Below are positions 1 through 11,055 of a stretch of DNA of 11,055 bases, piece after piece. Below the pieces are notes generated by a model. It was not told where the DNA came from, did not search any database, and saw only the letters and a program-made list of their open reading frames with translations. The stretch spans positions 1 through 11,055 of the forward strand of contig JAOPTX010000067.1 in NCBI GenBank assembly GCA_051532055.1, in the 5' to 3' direction. Within the stretch, counting starts at the first letter, position 1, and each line of letters begins with the position of its first letter. A program made the position numbers and the translations under genes. The stretch is from Fibrobacterales bacterium. Lineage in GTDB: Bacteria > Fibrobacterota > Fibrobacteria > Fibrobacterales > JAOPTW01.

Positions 1-2
1 AA

Positions 3-398
3 TGGCGTTCGGTAAATGGAGCACCTCCATTTATCCCCCATGAGATCGACAACAAATGGGAGAATGCCAATGATTGTCTCTCGTGTCATAAAAATGGTGG
101 GTTTGTAATGAAGTGGAAAAAATTCACTCCACCAATGCCTCATGATTTTATCGGTGAATGTCGCATGTGTCACAACCCTCCTTACCCAGGGTATAAAGAT
201 GGAGGTCTTGCAACGAAAGGTGCTCCCGCTCTTAATAATGTAGTGGCTCCTGGTGCTCCACCACAGATTCCTCATTCTACTGCTATGAGAAAAAATTGTG
301 TATCATGTCACTTTGGCCCAACCGCAATCAAAGAGGTGGCATCACCTCACGAAGAACGCGCGAATTGTGCAGCCTGTCACCAGCCATTGGCCCAGTAG
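3..398 (+). CDS. Multiheme cytochrome c with two tandem NapB-like diheme units (5'-truncated, at least 4 hemes)
   Basis: The frame of ORF 108..398 is open back to the window edge (WRSVNGAPPFIPHEIDNKWENANDCLSCHKNGGFV-MKW...). Four CxxCH motifs: CLSCH 75-89, CRMCH 159-173, CVSCH 297-311, CAACH 366-380. The NapB-like GAPPxIPH motif occurs twice (starting at 18 and 252). Stop TAG at 396-398. Confidence 0.85.
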   Translation, partial: WRSVNGAPPFIPHEIDNKWENANDCLSCHKNGGFVMKWKKFTPPMPHDFIGECRMCHNPPYPGYKDGGLATKGAPALNNVVAPGAPPQIPHSTAMRKNCVSCHFGPTAIKEVASPHEERANCAACHQPLAQ

Positions 399-407
399 GA
401 GTAACGA

Positions 408-1055
408 ATGAAAATACTATTGACTATTGCGACAATCGCTATGATAACCATTTTTACTGGTTGTAATTCCCATGAAGAGGTTACCTTTACCCAGCGCATT
501 CATGCAGCCAAAGAGGTTCCTACATATTCTGAAAATCTTGTAGAGTTTCATAAAGATTCGAAGAAATTTTATATGGGTTCTGGCCTGTTTGGTTCACAAC
601 CTTTTCATGTGCTTGACACGGGGAGTGTTGCACAGAGAGATAATTGTGCTAACTGTCACCAAGGATCACTTAACGTACAGATGAAGAAAAACCGCCCATC
701 ATCAGCGAAACTATCTCACTGGGATAAAAAGTTACATCATGGGCCAGAAGGAATTCTTCAGTGTGCAACGTGTCATGACTATGATGCGAAGCAACCTGTT
801 TTAAAGAGTGCTATGAAAACCAATCTCGATTTTTCTCAAGTGTATCAGACCTGTCAGACTTGTCACAATGACAAAGTACGTGATTGGGCTTTTGGTGCAC
901 ATGGTAAACGTGTTGGCGGATGGGTTCCCCCAAAAGTTATTCGTAACTGTACTGGGTGTCACAATCCTCACGATCCAAGCTTTAAAGGATCTATTCCTAA
1001 AGCGATCCCACAGAACTATAACATTACTCGGGGGATAATCACCGATGCAAAATGA
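408..1055 (+). CDS. Tetraheme c-type cytochrome, predicted lipoprotein
   Basis: RBS AGGAG upstream. N-terminus MKILLTIATIAMITIFTG-C has a lipobox. Four CxxCH motifs (CANCH, CATCH, CQTCH, CTGCH) plus extra His residues (LSHW, LHHG, GAHG, NPHD) as candidate distal ligands. Confidence 0.88.
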   Translation: MKILLTIATIAMITIFTGCNSHEEVTFTQRIHAAKEVPTYSENLVEFHKDSKKFYMGSGLFGSQPFHVLDTGSVAQRDNCANCHQGSLNVQMKKNRPSSAKLSHWDKKLHHGPEGILQCATCHDYDAKQPVLKSAMKTNLDFSQVYQTCQTCHNDKVRDWAFGAHGKRVGGWVPPKVIRNCTGCHNPHDPSFKGSIPKAIPQNYNITRGIITDAK

Positions 1056-2016
1056 ATTTCTAGAAAACATTGAAAAAGATCTTAATGAGTTAAAAGATAA
1101 AAACCTCACCAGAAGATCAGCAATTAAGAAAATGGCTGCTGGTACACTTATGGCAGCAACTGCGGTAAGTGCAGCAAAAAATCCATTGAACGATAATGAT
1201 AAAGCCCGCGTTCGTAATTTGGAACTCCAAGAGTTTATTAAAACAAATTACAAGGTGATGACTCGCGAAGAAAAGTTAGCTACAGTTAAACGTCTTGAAG
1301 AGCTTGCAAAACTAAAGCACAATGTTGATGTATCCATATCATCGAAAGATGCAATACCTGGTGTACTATACGGATATGCTTTTAATATTGGGCGTTGTGG
1401 TGGTTACCAGGACTGTATTACTGCATGTCAAAAAGAGAATAACCTTTCTCAAGATTCAAATATGCAGTATATCAAAATATTTGAATCAAAGCTGGGTGAA
1501 TCACTGCACCTTACTTCTGGCAATGCACAATATCAGCATGAAATTCCTGTTGATGATCACTTTTACATGGGGACTCAGTGTTTTCACTGTGAAAACCCAC
1601 CATGTGTAAAAGTATGCCCAACACAAGCAACCTGGAAAGAACCTGATGGCATTGTTGTCGTTGATTACGATTGGTGTATTGGATGTCGGTATTGTGAAGC
1701 GGGCTGTCCGTACTTTGGTCGTCGTTTTAACTGGTCTGAACCTGTAATACCAAAAGAAGATCTTAATACTACCCAGCACTATTTAGGAAACCGTCCACGT
1801 TCAAAAGGCGTGATGGAGAAATGTACATTCTGTATTCAACGTTCGCGTGATGGCAAAAATACTGCATGTGTTGAAGCGTGTCCAACTGGCGCACGAGTAT
1901 TTGGTAATATTCTTGATCCCAATAGTGAAATAAGATATGTTCTTGAAAATAAATCGGTATTCAGATTGAAAGAAGACTTGAACACGGACCCTAAATTTTG
2001 GTACTTCAAGGACTAA
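1045..2016 (+). CDS. Tat-exported 4Fe-4S dicluster-type electron-transfer subunit (NrfC/DsrO/PsrB family)
   Basis: Twin-arginine motif LTRRSAIKK followed by an Ala-rich h-region. Cys groups CGGYQDCITAC, CFHCENPPCVKVCP, CIGCRYCEAGCP and KCTFC...CVEACP. C-terminal FGNILDPNSEI...TDPKFWY is typical of the family. Overlaps the upstream gene by 11 nt. Confidence 0.92.
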   Translation: MQNEFLENIEKDLNELKDKNLTRRSAIKKMAAGTLMAATAVSAAKNPLNDNDKARVRNLELQEFIKTNYKVMTREEKLATVKRLEELAKLKHNVDVSISSKDAIPGVLYGYAFNIGRCGGYQDCITACQKENNLSQDSNMQYIKIFESKLGESLHLTSGNAQYQHEIPVDDHFYMGTQCFHCENPPCVKVCPTQATWKEPDGIVVVDYDWCIGCRYCEAGCPYFGRRFNWSEPVIPKEDLNTTQHYLGNRPRSKGVMEKCTFCIQRSRDGKNTACVEACPTGARVFGNILDPNSEIRYVLENKSVFRLKEDLNTDPKFWYFKD

Positions 2017-2025
2017 GGAGAAATT

Positions 2026-3255
2026 ATGCGTGATACCATTGGAAGAATCGTCGATTTTAATTTATTAGCACTACGTATTCTCTTTGTCGGGAGTGCTCAG
2101 TATTACATGTGGATGTCATTTTTAACCCTCCTTATTATGGGTGGGTTATTGGCGTATGCACAACAGTATGATACAGGCATGGCAGTTACTGGCATGAATG
2201 ATATTGTAAGTTGGGGCCTTTACATTGCTAATTTTACTTATTTTGTTGGGGTGGCAGCATCAGCATTGATGATTGTAATGCCCTTTTACATATTTAAAGA
2301 GCAGGAATTTCGTTCCTCGGTTCTTGTAGGTGAAGCAGTTGCGGTAGCGGCAATTACAATGTGTATATTGTTCGTTACTGTTGATATTGGAGGGCCACTT
2401 CGTGTTTGGCATCTAATGCCATTTGTAGGAACCCCAAATTTTCCTGACTCAATTTTGACTTGGGATATATTGGTTCTCAACGGCTACCTTATGCTCAACT
2501 TAGGTATACCAATCTACCTACTTTATAAGAAAGCACACGGGCGTGATCCAGTAAAAAAACATTACTATCCATTTGTAATAACTTCAATTTTTTGGGCTGT
2601 ATCAATTCATATGGTGACCGCATTCTTATTTCAAGGAATTCAAGGAAAGCCATTTTGGGCATCTGCACTTATGGCGCCAAAATTTCTTGCAAGTGCATTC
2701 TCGTCAGGACTCGCTTTTATACTGATTCTTTTGACAATTGTACGTACGTTAACACGTTACGAAATTTCGAATAGTGCTCTTCATAAGATGGCTCAAATTA
2801 TGACAGTGGCATCGCTTGTAAATATGATTATGTTCTTTTCTGAATATTTTAAAGAGTTCTATATGTTTGCGCATCACAGTGAAAGTGCACAGTATCTCTA
2901 TTGGGGGCTGGGCGACCATATGACAACTCTCAATTATCTTGCTTGGGGCCTAAAAATACTCAGTATAGTAGCTACTATTGCATTAACAGTTGGCTTGTTT
3001 AAGGGTAAATTTAAGCTTCTAATTCCGCTCTGTGGCGCGATGTTTATTTCTGCTTGGTTTGATAAAGGTATAGCATTTGTTGTCCCTGGGTTTGTACCAA
3101 GCCCACTGGGAGAAGAAATAAGTTATGTACCTACAGTCATTGAGTGGGGAGTACTCGCTGGAGTATTTGGCATAGGTCTTATTACTCTTACGATCTTGCT
3201 CAGACTCATTATCAATATTGAATTGGGTGGGATGAAAATAAAAGACTCTAAATAA
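2026..3255 (+). CDS. NrfD/PsrC/DsrP family polytopic membrane anchor (probable quinol-interacting subunit)
   Basis: RBS TAAGGAG. About 10 hydrophobic segments. Family motifs TGMNDIVSWGLYIANFTYFVGVAA, DIGGPLRVW, SILTWD, APKFLASAF and YVPTVIEW. Directly follows an NrfC-like gene. Confidence 0.92.
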   Translation: MRDTIGRIVDFNLLALRILFVGSAQYYMWMSFLTLLIMGGLLAYAQQYDTGMAVTGMNDIVSWGLYIANFTYFVGVAASALMIVMPFYIFKEQEFRSSVLVGEAVAVAAITMCILFVTVDIGGPLRVWHLMPFVGTPNFPDSILTWDILVLNGYLMLNLGIPIYLLYKKAHGRDPVKKHYYPFVITSIFWAVSIHMVTAFLFQGIQGKPFWASALMAPKFLASAFSSGLAFILILLTIVRTLTRYEISNSALHKMAQIMTVASLVNMIMFFSEYFKEFYMFAHHSESAQYLYWGLGDHMTTLNYLAWGLKILSIVATIALTVGLFKGKFKLLIPLCGAMFISAWFDKGIAFVVPGFVPSPLGEEISYVPTVIEWGVLAGVFGIGLITLTILLRLIINIELGGMKIKDSK

Positions 3256-3296: not shown

Positions 3297-3323
3297 AGGC
3301 CACCAAATAAGGTGGCCTTTTTT
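3297..3323 (+). terminator. Rho-independent terminator of the cytochrome/NrfCD-like operon
   Basis: Stem AGGCCACC (3297-3304) / GGTGGCCT (3311-3318), loop AAATAA, followed by a T-tract to 3323. Confidence 0.85.
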
Positions 3324-3403: not shown

Positions 3404-3715
3404 TTAGGGATGCACTGTCAAAGTTGTACCGTAGGTTTGTTCTATATACTGCACCAATATTTTTTTTGTATCCATTGGCCGTTTGACTAATTGAGCACCA
3501 TTATCACACCAACCTTTACAGATGGCAGTGGCTTTACCTAAAGACGTATAGAGTGTTTCATGTCTGATATACTCATCTAAGTCGCTTGGTTTAAGCACTG
3601 TGCCGATGATAACCTCCTTTACAGCATCTCTATCAACAAACTGATATTTATCATTGTGGGCAAATGTTTGATCAATAATTTCATTGATATAGCGTATCAT
3701 ATCTTTAGAATGCAT
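3404..3715 (-). CDS. Hypothetical soluble protein, 103 aa (MHSKDMIRY...TLTVHP)
   Basis: The ORF fills an otherwise empty intergenic space. A strong RBS (GAGGAGG-ATACT-ATG on the - strand) supports a start at 3715 rather than 3742. No family recognised. Confidence 0.7.
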   Translation of the reverse strand: MHSKDMIRYINEIIDQTFAHNDKYQFVDRDAVKEVIIGTVLKPSDLDEYIRHETLYTSLGKATAICKGWCDNGAQLVKRPMDTKKILVQYIEQTYGTTLTVHP

Positions 3716-3811
3716 AGTATCCTCCTCTAGTAAGTATATCATAACTCATTTTAAAAAGTTTTAATGTCGCTAATATTGCTTCTAAATTTTGTCAAATACC
3801 AAATATCTATA

Positions 3812-3827
3812 TGGCACACATATTGCT
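3812..3827 (+). promoter_or_regulatory. Sigma54 (RpoN) -24/-12 promoter for nirB-nirD-narK
   Basis: TGGCAC-ACATA-TTGCT matches TGGCAC-N5-TTGCW, with exactly 10 nt between GG (3813-3814) and GC (3825-3826). It lies ~95 nt upstream of the nirB ATG in the correct orientation. Confidence 0.8.
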
Positions 3828-3922
3828 AGAGTAGAGATAGGTCACAAAAGATGTGATGTTTGATTACATGAGAATATAGCGTAATCAAATATTTCAGTAT
3901 GATGAATATACAGTGGGAAATT

Positions 3923-6409
3923 ATGAAGAAAAAATGTGTCGTTGTTGGTAATGGAATGGTTGGTCTTAAATACATTAAGGAGCTACTAGAGAAAGATACA
4001 CAGGAAACATATGAAATAATTGTGTATGGTGAGGAAGGTAGGCCGGCGTATGATAGAGTACAACTCACTTCTTTTTTTAATACTCTTGATCCACTTGATT
4101 TAGAAATTGAATCATCTTCATGGTATAGTGATAATGGTGTGACACTAAAGACTGGTGAAAAAGTTATAAAGCTTGACCGAAGTGCGAAAACACTTACAAC
4201 TGATCAAGGCGCTACGACCACTTATGATACTCTTATACTTGCTACAGGTTCATTTCCTTTTGTTCCTCCCATACAAGGAAAAGATAAGAAAGGGGTCTTT
4301 GTATATAGGACAATTGAAGATTTGCAGAACATTAGATCGTATAGTTTAACATCAAAATCTGCGGTGGTGATTGGCGGTGGATTATTAGGATTGGAAGCGG
4401 CAAAAGCGTTAATTGATTTAGGTATGGAGACTCACGTAATAGAGTTTGCGAGTAGATTAATGCCAAACCAAATTGATGATCAAGGGTCAAAGCTTTTAGT
4501 TGAAAAAATAGAGACTCTCGGTGCGAAGGTACATTTGAATAAAGCCTCTCAATCAATTGAAGGAACAGATTCAGTAGAAAAGATTGTATTTACTGATGGC
4601 ACTGAATTATCGGTAGACATGATTGTTGTTTCGGCAGGTATTCGACCACGTGATGAACTTGCGAAGCAGTCTGGTATTTTGATTGGGGAAAGAGGCGGCA
4701 TAATTGTTGACGATACTTTAAAAACAAATGACCCTGATGTGTATGCAATTGGAGAATGCGCGCTCCACAACAATTTTATTTATGGATTAGTAGCTCCAGG
4801 CTATCAAATGGCAACTACAGCGGCAGCAACAGTACTGGGAGAAAGCAGTTCATTTCAGGGTGCAGATATGTCAACCAAATTGAAATTGATGGGTGTTGAT
4901 GTTGCATCAATTGGTGCCTCTACATTGGTTGATGATCACAGCGTCACTACAGTAGAAATACTTAATAGCTATGAAGGAGTGTATAAAAAGCTCATTATAG
5001 ATAAAGAGAGTCAAACACTTCGTGGGGCTGTCTTTGTAGGGGACGCATCTGAATATGGGCAATTACTCCAATATTATAAAAATGAAATGCAATTACCGGC
5101 ATCGCCTATTCAGTTAATAGTAAAGGGGGTAGAGGGAGAGAATGAAGGAGCTGGTATAACTGCCCTTCCTGACGCGGCTCAAATATGTAGTTGTGAGAAT
5201 ATCTCTAAGGGAAATATCATTGATGCAGTTCAGGATGGGGCGACTTCAGTTGCTACTATAAAAAAGTGTACGAAAGCAGGCACCGGCTGTGGGAGTTGCG
5301 TTTCACTTATCAAAGATGTTATGGATCATGAGATTCAAAAATCGGGAGGTGTCGTTGATACTTCATTGTGTGAACATTTCTCAATTTCACGAGTAACACT
5401 TCGCGATACAATGCAAGAAGGAATTTTTACTTCTTTTAAAGAGGTGATTACTGCATTAGGTAGCGGTGAAGGCTGTGAAATTTGCAAAACGACAGTAGCG
5501 TCAATTCTTGCTTCGTATCAAAACCCAACACTATTAGAACAGCAGAATGTTCAAGAAACAAATGACTATTATCTTGCCAATATTCAAAAGAATGGTACTT
5601 ATTCAATTATTCCTCGAATAGCAGGGGGAGAGATTACTGCTGCAATGCTTGGGGTATTAGCTCAAATAGGTCAGGAATATGATCTTTATACTAAAATTAC
5701 AGGAGCACAACGAATTGGGCTCTATGGAGCTACAGTGGAGCAACTTCCAATTATTTGGGAACGTTTGATTGATGCTGGTTTTGAAACAGGGCAGGCGTAT
5801 GCTAAGTCCTTGAGAGCAGTTAAGTCTTGTGTAGGCCAGTCGTGGTGTCGGTATGGTGTCGGGGATTCTACGCAACTTGCAATTGATCTTGAAAATAGAT
5901 ATAAAGGCTTAAGAACGCCTCATAAAATTAAGATGGGGGTATCAGGTTGTGCTCGAGAGTGCGCAGAAGCACAAGGAAAAGATTTTGGAATAATAGCTAC
6001 TGAAAATGGCTGGAACCTATATGTATGTGGAAATGGAGGAATGAAACCTCAACATGCAGTTCTCTTTGCAGCGGATATCGAGAGAGACCTTGTGTTTGAC
6101 TATATAGATCGAATCATCATGTATTATGTTCGAACAGCAGATCGTTTAGAAAGAACCGCTACATGGTTAAACAAATTGCCTGGGGGGATAGAGCATCTAA
6201 AAGATGTGGTCATGCATGATGTACTGGGAATAAATGCTGAATTAGAAGAAGAAATGAAATTTTCAATTGAGACTTTTCGGTGTGAATGGAAGGAGAGTAT
6301 TGAAAACACTAAAATTAAACAGCGATTTAAAACCTTCATAAATAGTGACATTACCGATAATGACATTGCATTTAATGAAGTACGTGGACAAATTCAGCCT
6401 GCTCAATAG
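3923..6409 (+). CDS. nirB: NAD(P)H-dependent siroheme nitrite reductase, large subunit
   Basis: FAD-binding VVVGNGMVG and NADH-binding VIGGGLLGLEAA. BFD-like 2Fe-2S motifs (ICSC...GTGCGSC; LCEHF...GCEIC). ANIQKNGTYSIIPRIAGGEIT. Siroheme/4Fe-4S ligands KSCVGQSWCRYG and SGCARECAEA. Start placed at ATG 3923 (MKKKCVVVG); upstream in-frame ATGs at 3899/3902 are possible. Confidence 0.97.
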   Translation: MKKKCVVVGNGMVGLKYIKELLEKDTQETYEIIVYGEEGRPAYDRVQLTSFFNTLDPLDLEIESSSWYSDNGVTLKTGEKVIKLDRSAKTLTTDQGATTTYDTLILATGSFPFVPPIQGKDKKGVFVYRTIEDLQNIRSYSLTSKSAVVIGGGLLGLEAAKALIDLGMETHVIEFASRLMPNQIDDQGSKLLVEKIETLGAKVHLNKASQSIEGTDSVEKIVFTDGTELSVDMIVVSAGIRPRDELAKQSGILIGERGGIIVDDTLKTNDPDVYAIGECALHNNFIYGLVAPGYQMATTAAATVLGESSSFQGADMSTKLKLMGVDVASIGASTLVDDHSVTTVEILNSYEGVYKKLIIDKESQTLRGAVFVGDASEYGQLLQYYKNEMQLPASPIQLIVKGVEGENEGAGITALPDAAQICSCENISKGNIIDAVQDGATSVATIKKCTKAGTGCGSCVSLIKDVMDHEIQKSGGVVDTSLCEHFSISRVTLRDTMQEGIFTSFKEVITALGSGEGCEICKTTVASILASYQNPTLLEQQNVQETNDYYLANIQKNGTYSIIPRIAGGEITAAMLGVLAQIGQEYDLYTKITGAQRIGLYGATVEQLPIIWERLIDAGFETGQAYAKSLRAVKSCVGQSWCRYGVGDSTQLAIDLENRYKGLRTPHKIKMGVSGCARECAEAQGKDFGIIATENGWNLYVCGNGGMKPQHAVLFAADIERDLVFDYIDRIIMYYVRTADRLERTATWLNKLPGGIEHLKDVVMHDVLGINAELEEEMKFSIETFRCEWKESIENTKIKQRFKTFINSDITDNDIAFNEVRGQIQPAQ

Positions 6410-6434
6410 GTTTTGAGCAATAATAAGGATTGAT

Positions 6435-6761
6435 ATGAGTGATTGGATTCAAATTGGAGCCTTGGCCGATGCACAGCCAAATGCGGGGATGTGTGCTAAG
6501 GTTAAGGGTAAACATATTGCAATTTTTAATTTCGATTTAGAGCGATGGTATGCCGTACAAAATACATGCCCTCATGATAATAGAAGTGTTCTCTCTCGTG
6601 GTATAATAGGGGATATGAGTAAAGAACCAAAAGTAGTGTGTCCCCTTCATAAAAACCAATTTTCTCTTGAAAATGGATCGTCCCTTGACGATAACGATTG
6701 GATTCTTGAAACGTATGAAATAAAAGTTGTTAATGAAATAATTTATATAAAGGGATTCTAA
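6435..6761 (+). CDS. nirD: Nitrite reductase small subunit (Rieske-like)
   Basis: RBS TAAGGA. IAIFNF...WYAVQNTCPH...VLSRGIIGD...PKVVCPLHKNQFSLENG. Immediately downstream of nirB. Confidence 0.95.
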   Translation: MSDWIQIGALADAQPNAGMCAKVKGKHIAIFNFDLERWYAVQNTCPHDNRSVLSRGIIGDMSKEPKVVCPLHKNQFSLENGSSLDDNDWILETYEIKVVNEIIYIKGF

Positions 6762-8237
6762 ATGGAAATCGCAACGAGTAAATCACATAAAATTTTAACG
6801 TTGAACACTTTAGGATTCACCATATTCTTTGCTGTATGGATGCTTAATGGAGTGCTTGTAACATTCTTAGCAGCAAATCAGGTATTCGATTGGGGAGCGG
6901 TTGAAATTGGATGGTTATTGGGGATTCCCGTATTGACTGGGGCACTTTTTCGGTTACCTGCTGGTATACTCACTGATAAGTATGGAGGAAGGCCAATTTT
7001 TACTGCCCTCTTTTTTATTGTCGCAATACCGATGTACTTGTTGTCCTATGTAGATAGTTATATGGGTTTTGCGTTGTGTAGTTTTGGCTTTGGGTTGGCG
7101 GGGGTAAGTTTTTCAATTGGCATAGCATACACATCCATTTGGTATCCCAAGAAAAACCAGGGTTTTGCTTTGGGAGTTTTTGGGGCGGGGAATGCTGGAG
7201 CGGCGCTGACCACTCTATTTGCACCAGCTATACTGAATACATTAACAGATAACGGCTCTCACCTTGAAGGATGGAGGCTACTACCACAGTATTATGCTAT
7301 AATTTTAGTTGTATCTGGTGTATTCTTTTTCCTCTTTTCAGAGAATAAAAAACCAGCATCATCTAATAAGACTATTAAAATGATGTTACAGCCCTTAAAA
7401 AATATTAGAGTGTGGCGCTTTGGCCTCTATTACTTTTTAGTATTTGGCTGTTTTGTTGCATTCTCTCAATGGTTGGTTCCCTATTTTGTAAATGTGTATA
7501 GCATGGATCTTGTTACTGCGGGGATTTTAGCGGCATTATTTAGTTTCCCTTCTGGGATAATACGTGCCCTTGGTGGCTGGATGTCAGATCATTTTGGTGC
7601 TCGAAGAGTCATGTATTGGATTTTGATTTCCTCTGCATTAATTAGTTTTATGCTTATCATTCCACGAATGGAAATCTATTCACCGGGTAAAGGAGTTATG
7701 GCGAAAAGAGATGGGATTGTACAGGCGGTTACAGCTGAAAAAATAGTAATGGATTATGGTGAAATTCCATTGACTATGAAACCAAAAATTACCGGCATAT
7801 CTGATAATAGCTTTTCGATTCTTCCATCAAAACTTGGGTGGCAAGAGTCAATAGTTGTTGTAGGTCAGGTGATAAAGAAAAAAGAACTCATAGCAAAAGG
7901 GATTACAAAGATTAACTTCCAGGCAAATGTATGGATTTTCGCAGTACTTGTTATCCTACTCGGCAGTATTTGGGGTATTGGCAAAGCTGCAGTGTATAAA
8001 CATATCCCCGATTATTTTCCTGATGAAGTTGGAGTTGTCGGTGGGATGGTTGGAGTACTTGGCGGGCTTGGTGGGTTTGTATGTCCTATTATCTTTGGCT
8101 ATCTGCTTGAGGGGACGGGACTTTGGTCAAGTTGCTGGATATTTATGTGCTTTCTTTCAGTAGTATGCTTATTGTGGATGCATCGAGTAATTGTTAAAAT
8201 GACTCAATATCCCGATGGTTTTGATAGCAAGGAATAG
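6762..8237 (+). CDS. narK: NarK/NRT2-family (NNP) MFS nitrate/nitrite transporter with an inserted soluble domain
   Basis: 12 predicted TM helices. Conserved Arg in TM2 (LFRLPAG) and TM8 (IIRALGGWMSD). Nitrate-signature glycine motifs GFALGVFGAGNAG and GVVGGMVGVLGGLGGF. ATG directly abuts the nirD stop codon. Confidence 0.92.
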   Translation: MEIATSKSHKILTLNTLGFTIFFAVWMLNGVLVTFLAANQVFDWGAVEIGWLLGIPVLTGALFRLPAGILTDKYGGRPIFTALFFIVAIPMYLLSYVDSYMGFALCSFGFGLAGVSFSIGIAYTSIWYPKKNQGFALGVFGAGNAGAALTTLFAPAILNTLTDNGSHLEGWRLLPQYYAIILVVSGVFFFLFSENKKPASSNKTIKMMLQPLKNIRVWRFGLYYFLVFGCFVAFSQWLVPYFVNVYSMDLVTAGILAALFSFPSGIIRALGGWMSDHFGARRVMYWILISSALISFMLIIPRMEIYSPGKGVMAKRDGIVQAVTAEKIVMDYGEIPLTMKPKITGISDNSFSILPSKLGWQESIVVVGQVIKKKELIAKGITKINFQANVWIFAVLVILLGSIWGIGKAAVYKHIPDYFPDEVGVVGGMVGVLGGLGGFVCPIIFGYLLEGTGLWSSCWIFMCFLSVVCLLWMHRVIVKMTQYPDGFDSKE

Positions 8238-8430: not shown

Positions 8431-8472
8431 TTTGGTAAGAAATACAAAAGAGTAATTTTGTTGGGAGAATTA

Positions 8473-9120
8473 ATGATAGCACCACTACTGATTGGCATAG
8501 GCAGTGCATTTACTCACTGCCCAGGAATGTGTCTTCCCCTAAATCTTGTAGTACAAAAAACCTCTAAGTCTCCACTTTCAATGGTTTTATATCATATAGG
8601 CCGAATCCTCGGATATACTGGAATAGCAACGATCCTCTTTTTTATGTCAGACTCAATAGTCTCTCTTAAAGACCCACTCTATAAAAAAATTGGCTTTTCA
8701 TTTGTGGTCAGTATGTTTCTCTTTTTTGGATTGTGGTATCTCAACCTTATTCCTATTAATATGGAGAAAGGGCTATCAAAATTATTCCCTGCAAAACTCC
8801 AAAGATGGCTGCTCGGTAAAACAAGTCATGTGAGTAAGTTTTTTCTTGGGGTTTGTAATGCACTCCTCCCTTGCCCGACAAGTTATGCAGTTTTTTTATG
8901 GGCAGTAAGTGTTGAAAATATATTTGAAGTTATTGGTGGTACTCTTCTGTTTGGGGTCGCTACCACACCAGCTTTCGCACTTTTGTCAGTGCCTTTTGTT
9001 AAAAATCGAGTATTTGGTCAAATCTGGTTTCAGAGAGCTCTCGGGTTTTTCTTTCTCGGTATGTTTGCCTTTAAAATTTACAAGTTTAATATGATGCAAG
9101 GAGTACCTTCATGTCATTAA
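8473..9120 (+). CDS. DsbD_2 / sulfite-exporter TauE/SafE-like membrane protein associated with cbb3 oxidase biogenesis
   Basis: Motifs HCPGMC, YHIGRILGY, NALLPC and LLFGVATTP, about 6 TM segments and a C-terminal SCH. GGAG RBS precedes ATG 8473, preferred over TTG 8458. Sits upstream of ccoS/ccoN. Confidence 0.85.
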   Translation: MIAPLLIGIGSAFTHCPGMCLPLNLVVQKTSKSPLSMVLYHIGRILGYTGIATILFFMSDSIVSLKDPLYKKIGFSFVVSMFLFFGLWYLNLIPINMEKGLSKLFPAKLQRWLLGKTSHVSKFFLGVCNALLPCPTSYAVFLWAVSVENIFEVIGGTLLFGVATTPAFALLSVPFVKNRVFGQIWFQRALGFFFLGMFAFKIYKFNMMQGVPSCH

Positions 9121-9134
9121 AAAAAGAGAACGGT

Positions 9135-9251
9135 ATGAGTAAAATCGAAATTATAGCTGTAGTTATCCTATCAATTGCAGGTCTTGTAATTGGTATGCAG
9201 ATGGGCACAGCTGATGGTAAAGAAGAAGCAGCTCAGGTATATCAAAAATAA
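9135..9251 (+). CDS. Small single-pass membrane protein, 38 aa (MSKIEIIAVVILSIAGLVIGMQMGTADGKEEAAQVYQK)
   Basis: Read directly from sequence and not in the ORF track. ATG at 9135, TAA at 9249-9251. It fills the gap between the TauE-like stop (9120) and the ccoS ATG (9256). Purine-rich AAAGAGAA upstream. One clean hydrophobic helix. Confidence 0.65.
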   Translation: MSKIEIIAVVILSIAGLVIGMQMGTADGKEEAAQVYQK

Positions 9252-9255
9252 TAGT

Positions 9256-9417
9256 ATGTCGATACTTTTTTTATTGATTCCGTTGTCACTTATCATATCT
9301 GGTTTTTTTGTATTTCTGAGTATACGAGCAATACAGAAGGGACAATATGATGATATGGAGTCACCAAAATGGAGAATGCTGTTTGATAATGATGAAATTA
9401 AAAACAAAAAACAATAA
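9256..9417 (+). CDS. ccoS: cbb3-type cytochrome oxidase maturation protein CcoS/FixS (53 aa)
   Basis: MSILFLLIPLSLIISGFFVFLSIRAIQKGQYDDMESPKWRMLFD has an N-terminal TM helix plus the GQ(F/Y)DD motif. Start is the internal ATG 9256 of track ORF 9190..9417. Directly upstream of ccoN. Confidence 0.92.
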   Translation: MSILFLLIPLSLIISGFFVFLSIRAIQKGQYDDMESPKWRMLFDNDEIKNKKQ

Positions 9418-9428
9418 TCGAGGACATA

Positions 9429-11055
9429 ATGATAAACGTCACCTACGATAATCAAATTACCAAGAACTACCTTATAGCAACCCTTCTTTGGGCTGCTGTA
9501 GGTATGCTTGTTGGAGTACTTATCGCATTGCAATTGGCAGACCCCATGTTTAACTTTGGTGTCGAGTGGTTGAGCTATGGACGACTTCGTCCTCTCCATA
9601 CAAACGCGGTTATATTCGCATTTGCAGGTAATGCCATATTCATGGGTATCTACTACTCTACACAGAGATTGCTTAAAGTGCGGATGTTTAGTGATCTATT
9701 AACAAAGGTCCACTTTTGGGGTTGGCAGTTTATTATTGTATGTGCTGCGGTAACGTTATTACTTGGGTGGACTACTGGCAAGGAATATGCAGAACTTGAA
9801 TGGTGGATAGATATCCTTATTGTTCTCGTATGGGTTAGTTTTGCTATTAACTTTTTTGGAACTATTGCAAAGCGTAATGAAAAACATATTTATGTGGCAT
9901 TGTGGTTTTACATAGCAACAATCGTTACCATCGCAATTCTTCATATTGTAAATTCTATTGAATTACCAGTCGCTATTTCAAAAAGTTATCCGGTCTATGC
10001 AGGTGTGCAAGATGCTCTTGTGCAGTGGTGGTATGGGCATAATGCTGTTGGGTTCTTTTTGACAACCCCCTTTCTTGGCATGATGTACTACTTTCTTCCA
10101 AAGGCAGCAAATGGCCCAGTGTATTCCTACCGTCTCTCAATCATTCACTTTTGGGCACTGGTATTTCTCTATATTTGGACGGGTCCTCACCATTTACAAT
10201 ACTCATCACTTCCCGACTGGGCTCAAAATTTAGGAATGGTTTTCTCCATTATGCTTTGGGCTCCATCATGGGGGGGGATGATCAACGGTCTTATGACTCT
10301 TCGTGGCTCATGGGAAAAACTCAAATCTGACCCAATACTTAAATTTATGGTTACTGCAGTAACCTTCTACGGAATGGCTACTTTTGAAGGACCATTGCTC
10401 TCAATTAAATCGGTTAATGCATTGTCACACTATACTGATTGGACAATAGGACATACTCATTCAGCAGTACTTGGCTGGAATGGGTTTCTTGCATTTGGTG
10501 TCATTTATTGGTTGGTACCACGTCTTTGGAAGCGTGAGCTTTTTAGTCAAAAGCTTGCAAATATTCATTTTTGGGTAGCGCTCATTGGTATTGTAGGCTA
10601 TATGGTATCTATGTGGATTGCGGGAATCACTCAAGGTCTCATGTGGAAAGAGTTTGATAGTGAAGGAATGCTTGTCTATACTCAATTTCTCGATACTCTT
10701 ACCGCTATTATCCCTATGTATTGGGTGCGTATGGTGAGTGGACTCGCTTATTTTCTCTCACTTTTTATCATGGTCTATAACCTCGTTAAAACGGTGAAGG
10801 GCGCTAAAGTTGAAGACGAAACGGTTGAGGTAGCAGAACCGACATGGAAGACTGAAAAAGAGTCTACTAAAGGCCTCTATTGGCATACGGTTCTTGAGAG
10901 AAAGCCTCTATTCATGGCTATAGGTGTTGCGGTACTTATTTTAAGTGGGACTGTTGTAGAGTTGGTACCTGCCTTTATTATAAAATCAAATGTTCCAACC
11001 ATTAGTAGCGTTAAACCATATACTGCACTCGAACTTGAAGGGCGTGATATTTATA
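9429..11055 (+). CDS. ccoN: cbb3-type cytochrome c oxidase, fused subunit I/II (CcoN-CcoO), 3'-truncated
   Basis: Absent from the ORF track because there is no stop in the window. RBS GAGGA, ATG 9429. CcoN motifs YGRLRPLHTNAVIFAF, KEYAELEW, QWWYGHNAVGFFLT, IWTGPHHL and DWTIGHTH. Continues in frame into CcoO-like WHTVLERKP...VKPYTALELEGRDIY. Confidence 0.96.
   Translation, partial: MINVTYDNQITKNYLIATLLWAAVGMLVGVLIALQLADPMFNFGVEWLSYGRLRPLHTNAVIFAFAGNAIFMGIYYSTQRLLKVRMFSDLLTKVHFWGWQFIIVCAAVTLLLGWTTGKEYAELEWWIDILIVLVWVSFAINFFGTIAKRNEKHIYVALWFYIATIVTIAILHIVNSIELPVAISKSYPVYAGVQDALVQWWYGHNAVGFFLTTPFLGMMYYFLPKAANGPVYSYRLSIIHFWALVFLYIWTGPHHLQYSSLPDWAQNLGMVFSIMLWAPSWGGMINGLMTLRGSWEKLKSDPILKFMVTAVTFYGMATFEGPLLSIKSVNALSHYTDWTIGHTHSAVLGWNGFLAFGVIYWLVPRLWKRELFSQKLANIHFWVALIGIVGYMVSMWIAGITQGLMWKEFDSEGMLVYTQFLDTLTAIIPMYWVRMVSGLAYFLSLFIMVYNLVKTVKGAKVEDETVEVAEPTWKTEKESTKGLYWHTVLERKPLFMAIGVAVLILSGTVVELVPAFIIKSNVPTISSVKPYTALELEGRDIY

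Follow-up and report, generated by a model that had tools for sequence, protein, structure and literature searches.

Four operon types have been distinguished for the periplasmic nitrate reductase Nap, namely napEDABC, napDAGHB, napCMADGH as well as napAGHBFLD; none of them includes a gene of the NrfD family in the available text of a 2026 review (PMC13223375). Here we describe contig JAOPTX010000067.1 of a Fibrobacterales bacterium (assembly GCA_051532055.1), which was analysed over its whole length of 11,055 nucleotides (the window) and begins with a cassette of four open reading frames (ORFs) predicted to encode a doubled NapB-like cytochrome (ORF1), a second tetrahaem cytochrome (ORF2), a DsrO-like ferredoxin (ORF3) and a DsrP-like membrane protein (ORF4). 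Within a napD-napA-B-T4-dsrO-like-dsrP-like gene set, this cassette likely forms the half through which electrons enter, feeding menaquinol electrons to NapA in the place of NapC or NapGH. The set resembles known Nap systems in its NapA with a twin-arginine translocation (Tat) signal and molybdenum-ligand cysteine, its NapD chaperone and its NapB-related cytochrome encoded behind napA, and it differs from them in that no NapC, NapG or NapH was found, that the NapB-like cytochrome is doubled (four haems) and lipid-anchored, and that a second tetrahaem cytochrome and the DsrO/DsrP-like pair are added. The initial annotation of this stretch had proposed a little-characterised nitrate reductase chain without NapC or NapGH; in outline this is supported by the napA gene, the failure to find the usual donors and the conserved gene order described below, and none of the four reviewed operon types is alike.

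Outside the Nap systems the closest described relative is a locus named DsrOhPhCyt, which occurs in cable bacteria and in some Proteobacteria and whose function is reported as unknown (PMC13047784; 10.64898/2026.08.25.746951). It combines DsrO-like and DsrP-like genes with a bis-histidine tetrahaem cytochrome outside dsrMKJOP and would, going by its description in the available parts of these papers, be homologous to ORF2–ORF4, and there it is not described together with napA. As a lead only, a score of 0.89 was obtained for an Atlas cluster in which Thermodesulfobacteriota are frequent. For DsrMKJOP itself, menadiol has been located structurally in DsrP next to a DsrO cluster (10.64898/2026.08.25.746951, a 2026 preprint, as far as its available text goes), and the accessible text of a survey of the NrfD family lists Tyr52, Asp106, Ser124, Asp129 and Lys329 for DsrP1 of D. 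vulgaris (PMC8076601). Residues of ORF4 appear to match this list by their spacing and via DsrP-type sequences, and ORF3 is DsrO-like; in contrast to DsrMKJOP no DsrM was found here, the cytochrome has four haems instead of the three of DsrJ, and the electrons would end at a periplasmic molybdoenzyme and not at the cytoplasmic DsrK. NrfABCD of E. coli is similar in having an NrfD-family anchor, a four-cluster ferredoxin, a small multihaem relay and a soluble periplasmic reductase, whereas ORF3 and ORF4 stay far under the cut-offs for NrfC and NrfD, NapA would be the terminal enzyme here, and nrfA lies with nrfH on another contig. Among solved sequences, ActC and ActB of alternative complex III come closest to ORF4 and ORF3, respectively; unlike alternative complex III and QrcABCD, the cassette lacks both a fused molybdopterin-like domain and genes for ActD/E/F, and the cysteine lost from ORF3 belongs to motif I, compared with motif III in ActB (6f0k_B). 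Alternative complex III was rejected as an identity, as ORF3 is a free protein of 323 amino acids (aa) and the genome contains one NrfD-family gene. The available text of a further study (PMC10732223) mentions, for two genomes, a complex-III-like cluster with NrfD that lies downstream of nap and nxr genes, and this cluster may partly overlap the present operon. A term search did not find 'Nap' in the main text of the NrfD-family survey (PMC8076601), and neither a description nor a bench test of the operon was found in the literature searched, which left out supplements and most subscription journals. Judged by its sequences, the cassette falls outside NrfABCD, DsrMKJOP and alternative complex III, and it would work like a Nap system fed by a quinol dehydrogenase of the DsrOP/NrfCD type.

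The window is the entire contig C67 of the genome (G000; 5.17 Mb, 94% complete), so that window base 1 is contig base 1. All four ORFs lie on the + strand with spacings of 9, −11 and 9 bases: ORF1 ('B2', 3..398), whose 5' end is cut by the contig start, with roughly 70 codons missing, and which is the second of two paralogues in the genome; ORF2 ('T4', 408..1055), a predicted lipoprotein with four haems, all predicted to be bis-histidine, that belongs to no named family; ORF3 (1045..2016), the Tat-exported four-cluster ferredoxin; and ORF4 (2026..3255), the NrfD-family membrane protein and predicted menaquinol dehydrogenase. They are followed by a stem-loop resembling an intrinsic terminator at 3297..3318 (+), with an 8-pair stem including 6 G-C pairs, a subsequent T run and −15.8 kcal/mol. 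The initial annotation had described four tightly packed genes with a single terminator and at least eight haem-binding motifs, a Tat Fe-S protein and an NrfD-family anchor, all of which we could recover, the hairpin lying slightly beyond the end coordinate of 3255 given there. Since a terminator scan of the window gave nine candidates against 7.2 expected, which is chance level, the weight rests on the position of this hairpin directly after the cassette. Exactly eight CxxCH motifs are present, four in ORF1 and four in ORF2. Purifying selection acts on each of the four genes, the ratios of non-synonymous to synonymous substitution (dN/dS) against the sister genome G001 being 0.039, 0.060, 0.017 and 0.067 for ORF1 to ORF4. 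A relative of ORF4 with 98% identity carries the label Fibrobacterales, and a scan of genome contigs with a single protein matched a close relative only.

The NapA-like molybdoenzyme that had been postulated outside the window was found at the end of contig C27, where napA (C27:673-2982) passes both NCBIfam NapA cut-offs (NF010055, 970 with a cut-off of 904; TIGR01706, 932.9 with a cut-off of 930.55) and has exclusively NapA among its best solved matches. The protein carries the Tat signal SRRSFLK, the motif CRFCGVGC and the motif NARLCMASA with the molybdenum-ligand cysteine. Directly upstream an ORF of 86 aa has NapD as its best match (E 0.0015, under the cut-off), and directly behind napA lies B1, a full-length tetrahaem paralogue of ORF1 with 48% identity to it, after which C27 runs for another 115 bases and ends. 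One other molybdopterin oxidoreductase was found in the genome, making two: a NasA-like enzyme without a Tat signal beside the second nirB on C2. We infer that C27 and C67 are probably joined in the window's genome. For the orthologues of B1 (74% identical), ORF1 (75%), ORF2 (78%) and ORF3 in a relative, the longest contig is given as 52,708 bases in every case, a circumstantial sign that all four genes share one contig there; an ORF4 homologue with 82% identity reports a different longest contig of 45,033 bases.

To see how far this arrangement is conserved, metagenomes were scanned with the ORF4 alignment and the best 80 of 597 confirmed loci, chosen by similarity, were kept. Counting only loci that either showed the gene or had sufficient DNA upstream (for napA, 32 loci were too short), the upstream genes occur in the same order for napA in 45/48, for the NapB-like gene in 48/51, for T4 in 59/59 and for napD in 23/28 loci, so the four-gene neighbourhood, whose conservation the initial annotation had suggested surveying, is indeed associated with a molybdoenzyme. 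The call of a missing Fe-S gene at L038 was an ORF-calling artefact, as the gene is present, and the frameshifted loci L041 and L064 were excluded from alignments A3–A5. Flammeovirga kamogawensis has the intact six-gene order napD-napA-B-T4-FeS-P with NapD annotated. Within the window's own phylum a relative of ORF4 occurs in 9 of 296 genomes; G283 has all six genes and G244 has napA-B-T4-FeS-P, and others have nap-less or DsrJOP-type versions. Other Fibrobacterota show nap-less tetrahaem/Fe-S/DsrP-like modules among multihaem genes (L105:9860-13320 and L106:6602-12002), whose first Fe-S motif keeps four cysteines. At L037:4248-11158 both napA and the NapB-like gene have been lost from a module of the nap-linked clade, which faces a different molybdopterin enzyme of 885 aa on the opposite strand. 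NapA homologues without the molybdenum-ligand cysteine and without napD were seen at L074:5059-7401 and L078:3616-13067, the latter with a doubled Fe-S/DsrP-like pair.

The usual donors were not found: neither napC nor napG was detected over its cut-off in any of five genomes, nor napH over its cut-off in G000, which is 94% complete. The two NapC/NirT-family matches of the genome are nrfH beside nrfA on C26 and a hexahaem protein on C44. A search for the DsrM/NarI family (PF02665) gave no match in the genome, dsrK and dsrAB having had no separate search, and no trihaem cytochrome is present in the cassette. Genes of the MqnA/D family (futalosine route) indicate that the genome makes menaquinone. 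Downstream in the window a cbb3 oxidase cluster with a fused ccoNO (8458-11054) continues on C8 through an overlap of 132 bases with ccoP and genes of the fixG/H/I type. Two multihaem clusters (G000:C44 84375-101527 and G000:C23 61160-64667) each encode a fusion of cytochrome c and cytochrome b561 with 11 and 7 haems, respectively, the one on C23 being followed by sulfur-transport and rhodanese genes.

ORF3 has the Tat motif T-R-R-S-A-I-K-K at residues 22-29, of which R23 is invariant in 47/47 aligned homologues, and 15 cysteines, and the protein matches Fer4_11 (E 1e-21). Its best NCBIfam match is DsrO (188 bits, cut-off 200), compared to 121 bits with a cut-off of 378 for NrfC, and ORF4 passes the DsrP cut-off narrowly (351.6 bits with a cut-off of 350) and reaches 21.4 of the 347.6 bits for NrfD proper, in addition to its Pfam NrfD match (E 6e-34). 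The pair had been called NrfD/NrfC-like, which holds for the NrfD family in the broad sense, yet by these scores both proteins are closer to DsrO and DsrP; an identity as true NrfCD was rejected on the same scores and because nrfA is located on C26 with nrfH. The first cluster motif of ORF3 reads C-x2-Y-x2-C-x3-C with Tyr121 replacing the second cysteine, and this cysteine is absent from 59 of 63 near-full-length metagenome homologues (46 Tyr, 11 Phe, 1 Ser and 1 Asn), the four that retain it coming from nap-less loci or loci too short to judge. The altered cluster is probably a [3Fe-4S] cluster, by analogy with what mutagenesis of DmsB reportedly showed. Six residues of ORF4, namely Y66, D120, S142, D147, K347 and E373, do not vary among 40 homologues and recur in three DsrP-type sequences, one of which comes from a locus with dsrM/K/J-like genes. 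A crude hydropathy scan gave seven non-overlapping helices compared to the ten described for DsrP. ORF4 is about 50% identical to nap-linked and 35-38% identical to DsrP-type sequences, and in a quick tree of 69 sequences, which leaves out loci too short to label, it falls into a clade of 60 holding all nap-linked sequences (Shimodaira–Hasegawa-like approximate likelihood ratio test, SH-aLRT, 99), with three DsrJOP-type sequences, and nap-less ones, outside.

The tetrahaem lipoprotein of the initial annotation corresponds to ORF2, as its signal ends with FTG-C19 and it carries four of the CxxCH motifs; its family has eight invariant histidines for the four haems. Clustering at 50% gave 1020 relatives, and the Atlas clusters occur most often in Bacteroidota, Methylomirabilota, Gemmatimonadota, Myxococcota, Planctomycetota and Verrucomicrobiota. 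Its best profile match among solved structures is a weak one to the multihaem protein 6r2q_A (E 6.9e-07), its AlphaFold model is weak (predicted local distance difference test, pLDDT, 66.5; predicted template modelling score, pTM, 0.56), and Foldseek with this model found no match at E 0.001. Co-folding of the subunits, which had been recommended, gave a score of 0.78 for ORF3 with ORF2 compared to 0.00 for the best of three controls, exceeding a pass mark that is reached by 116 of 157 solved pairs and 2 of 215 mismatched pairs; the runs agreed in at least 92% of the contacts with a partner pLDDT of at least 71. The interface comprises ORF3 residues 117-129 including Tyr121 of the three-cysteine motif and a conserved GAHGKR stretch of ORF2, so that ORF2 is predicted to dock on the face of ORF3 that bears the three-cysteine cluster.

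ORF1 appears to be what it had been called, a doubled NapB-like cytochrome with four haems in two tandem halves compared to the single dihaem domain of NapB. Its halves align with each other (HHalign probability 99.3) and each retains the NapB histidine pattern, and the family profile finds three solved NapB sequences first among solved structures (E 6.5e-08 to 2.5e-05); eight histidines are invariant in 46 aligned sequences. In a half-versus-half test the ORF1 family had a median of 33.8 bits compared to 7.2 for the ORF2 family as control, although one control sequence reached 27.3 bits and thus exceeded the 26.5 of ORF1 itself. ORF1 itself remains under the Pfam NapB cut-off (23.6 compared to 25.1), has valine in place of the tyrosine of the NapB motif R-x-Y-x-x-x-P-P-x-I-P-H and is not the sole copy in its genome. 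For B1 as a single-sequence query NapB was found among solved structures only at E 0.99, so a profile was needed. The AlphaFold model of ORF1 is weak (pLDDT 60.7, pTM 0.33), and the kinship to NapB at fold level rests on sequence profiles. An orthologue of ORF1 in the relative mentioned above (75% identical) has 203 aa and a lipoprotein-type N-terminus. In the tree, B1 groups with ORF1 as its sister (support 98, long branches), and as two NapB-like copies were not seen at any surveyed locus, the duplication is particular to the window's lineage. The aromatic residue of the motif R-x-[YF]-x-G-x-P-P is present in 44/44 other family members and is tyrosine in B1 and in the three solved NapBs, whereas ORF1 has valine at this position. 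Because of this difference, and because B1 sits directly behind napA, we tentatively place B1 on NapA, and ORF1 may act upstream as a relay instead of as the partner of NapA.

The resulting model starts with menaquinol, which would be oxidised at a site around D120/S142 on the periplasmic side of ORF4. Its electrons would travel along the clusters of ORF3, exit through the altered, probably [3Fe-4S], cluster into ORF2 and pass from there to the NapB-like tetrahaems and finally to NapA, with ORF1 relaying from ORF2 to B1 and B1 docking on NapA. Nitrite would go to the NrfHA or NirBD of the genome, giving ammonium. Most simply the quinol step would be electroneutral, as with NapC.

Several observations weigh against this model. 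The ends of C27 and C67 do not overlap, and for each of the two contigs the assemblies of G000 and G001 stop at identical bases; contigs from the runs X1 and X2 (one sample, perhaps the source one) extend past the ends, one from an RNA library reaching 135 bases further upstream than the window, without bridging the gap. Contigs from the RNA library also cover window positions 1-3227 and parts of napA, and as they come from one sample as contigs they do not show transcription and were not counted as evidence. A 16-pair A+T-rich hairpin behind B1 (G000:C27, about 40-95), conserved in G001, could be a terminator or a transcript-stability element, and therefore napDA-B1 and the cassette may be separate transcripts. 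Three of the 48 sufficiently long loci lack napA (L037, L069 and L087), and together with the cysteine-less NapA homologues of L074 and L078 they imply that nitrate reduction is not the exclusive role of the module. Because the 80 loci were selected by similarity and are related to one another, their counts show conservation and are not independent trials. Other candidates for feeding NapA exist in the genome, namely NrfH, the NapC/NirT-domain hexahaem protein and the two cytochrome c/b561 fusions. Furthermore, the branch of ORF4 in the quick tree is long (1.94), and the co-folding result may reflect likeness to solved pairs of the ActB/ActA or DsrO/DsrJ type.

A speculative and fairly unlikely extension of the model would make the DsrOP-like module the only complex-III-like quinol outlet of the cell, with B1 leading to NapA and B2 to the cbb3 oxidase; if the DsrP-like subunit also moved protons through a channel at the conserved K347, Nap would then conserve energy at quinol oxidation. 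In a rival reading, which we hold to be unlikely, the module would act as a general quinol:cytochrome c oxidoreductase, replacing complex III on a small scale and supplying cbb3 and other periplasmic acceptors besides or instead of NapA, with B2 as the branch point. No bc1-type cytochrome b, bd oxidase or second NrfD-family gene, and hence no alternative complex III, was found in the genome, yet the cbb3 cluster is present, which leaves room for a shared role. B2 has also lost the aromatic residue kept by B1 and the other family members, and a similar module of cable bacteria is called a candidate alternative complex III in the available text of one paper (PMC13047784). Against this, absences are soft in a genome that is 94% complete, the oxidase could receive electrons from the cytochrome c/b561 fusions encoded on C44 and C23, and the module tracks napA across relatives, with no ccoN detected in the 80 metagenome loci.

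We regard it as very unlikely that the cassette is uncoupled from napA in this organism, so that NapA-B1 would be fed by NrfH or another quinol dehydrogenase while B2-T4-O-P served a different acceptor. The separate contigs, the hairpin behind B1, the divergence of B2 and the nap-less T4-O-P versions at L037, L069, L087, L105 and L106 would fit such a separation; the sister relationship of B1 and B2, long-branched as it is, and the longest-contig value shared by the orthologues of B1, B2, T4 and ORF3 in the relative do not, and the three-cysteine motif of ORF3 is of the type found in the nap-linked clade, four of these five nap-less loci having four cysteines, L037 being the exception. There is only a slight chance that the wiring is right and the substrate is another oxyanion such as chlorate or selenate, or that the flow is reversed, as general enzyme promiscuity and the cysteine-less NapA homologues at two other loci might suggest; here NapA passes both equivalog cut-offs with its molybdenum-ligand motif kept, and NrfHA and two NirBD sets are available for nitrite. 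Finally, that ORF3 and ORF4 are genuine DsrO and DsrP belonging to sulfur metabolism, which is how the automatic label reads and what the narrow pass of ORF4 would favour, is hardly credible and largely refuted by the lack of a DsrM/NarI-family match, by four haems in place of the three of DsrJ, and by the higher identity of ORF4 to nap-linked sequences, with which it also groups.

Behind the cassette follows an ORF of 112 aa on the opposite strand (window 3404-3742, −) without a convincing Pfam match, and then a nirBD set with a NarK-type transporter (window 3899-8237). A second nirBD set is located at G000:C2 32957-40077 beside the NasA-like enzyme and genes of the molybdenum-cofactor type. 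A sigma-54-type −24/−12 motif upstream of nirB (window 3812-3827, +), a type of match that occurs 34 times in the genome, suggests that nirBD-narK has its own promoter. We rejected nirBD-narK as part of the cassette unit, as the terminator and the opposite-strand ORF lie between them and it has a sigma-54-type motif of its own. For these reasons, and as a nirBD-narK-type neighbour was seen in just one other lineage (L103), the adjacent genes give weak support for nitrate as the substrate, for which they had originally been cited.

Coming back to the preferred model of a DsrOP-like input to NapA, such a system would represent a further common wiring of periplasmic nitrate respiration beyond NapC and NapGH, present in marine flavobacteria, Fibrobacterota and other groups; named matches of the NapB-like family include the marine flavobacteria Aquimarina, Arenibacter, Cellulophaga and Maribacter. 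In that case, a 'DsrP' or 'polysulfide reductase' label assigned automatically in these genomes could stand for nitrate respiration and not for sulfur metabolism. If the model is true, it would also provide a testable job for the type of DsrOP-tetrahaem module that is listed as being of unknown function in the available text of the 2026 papers.

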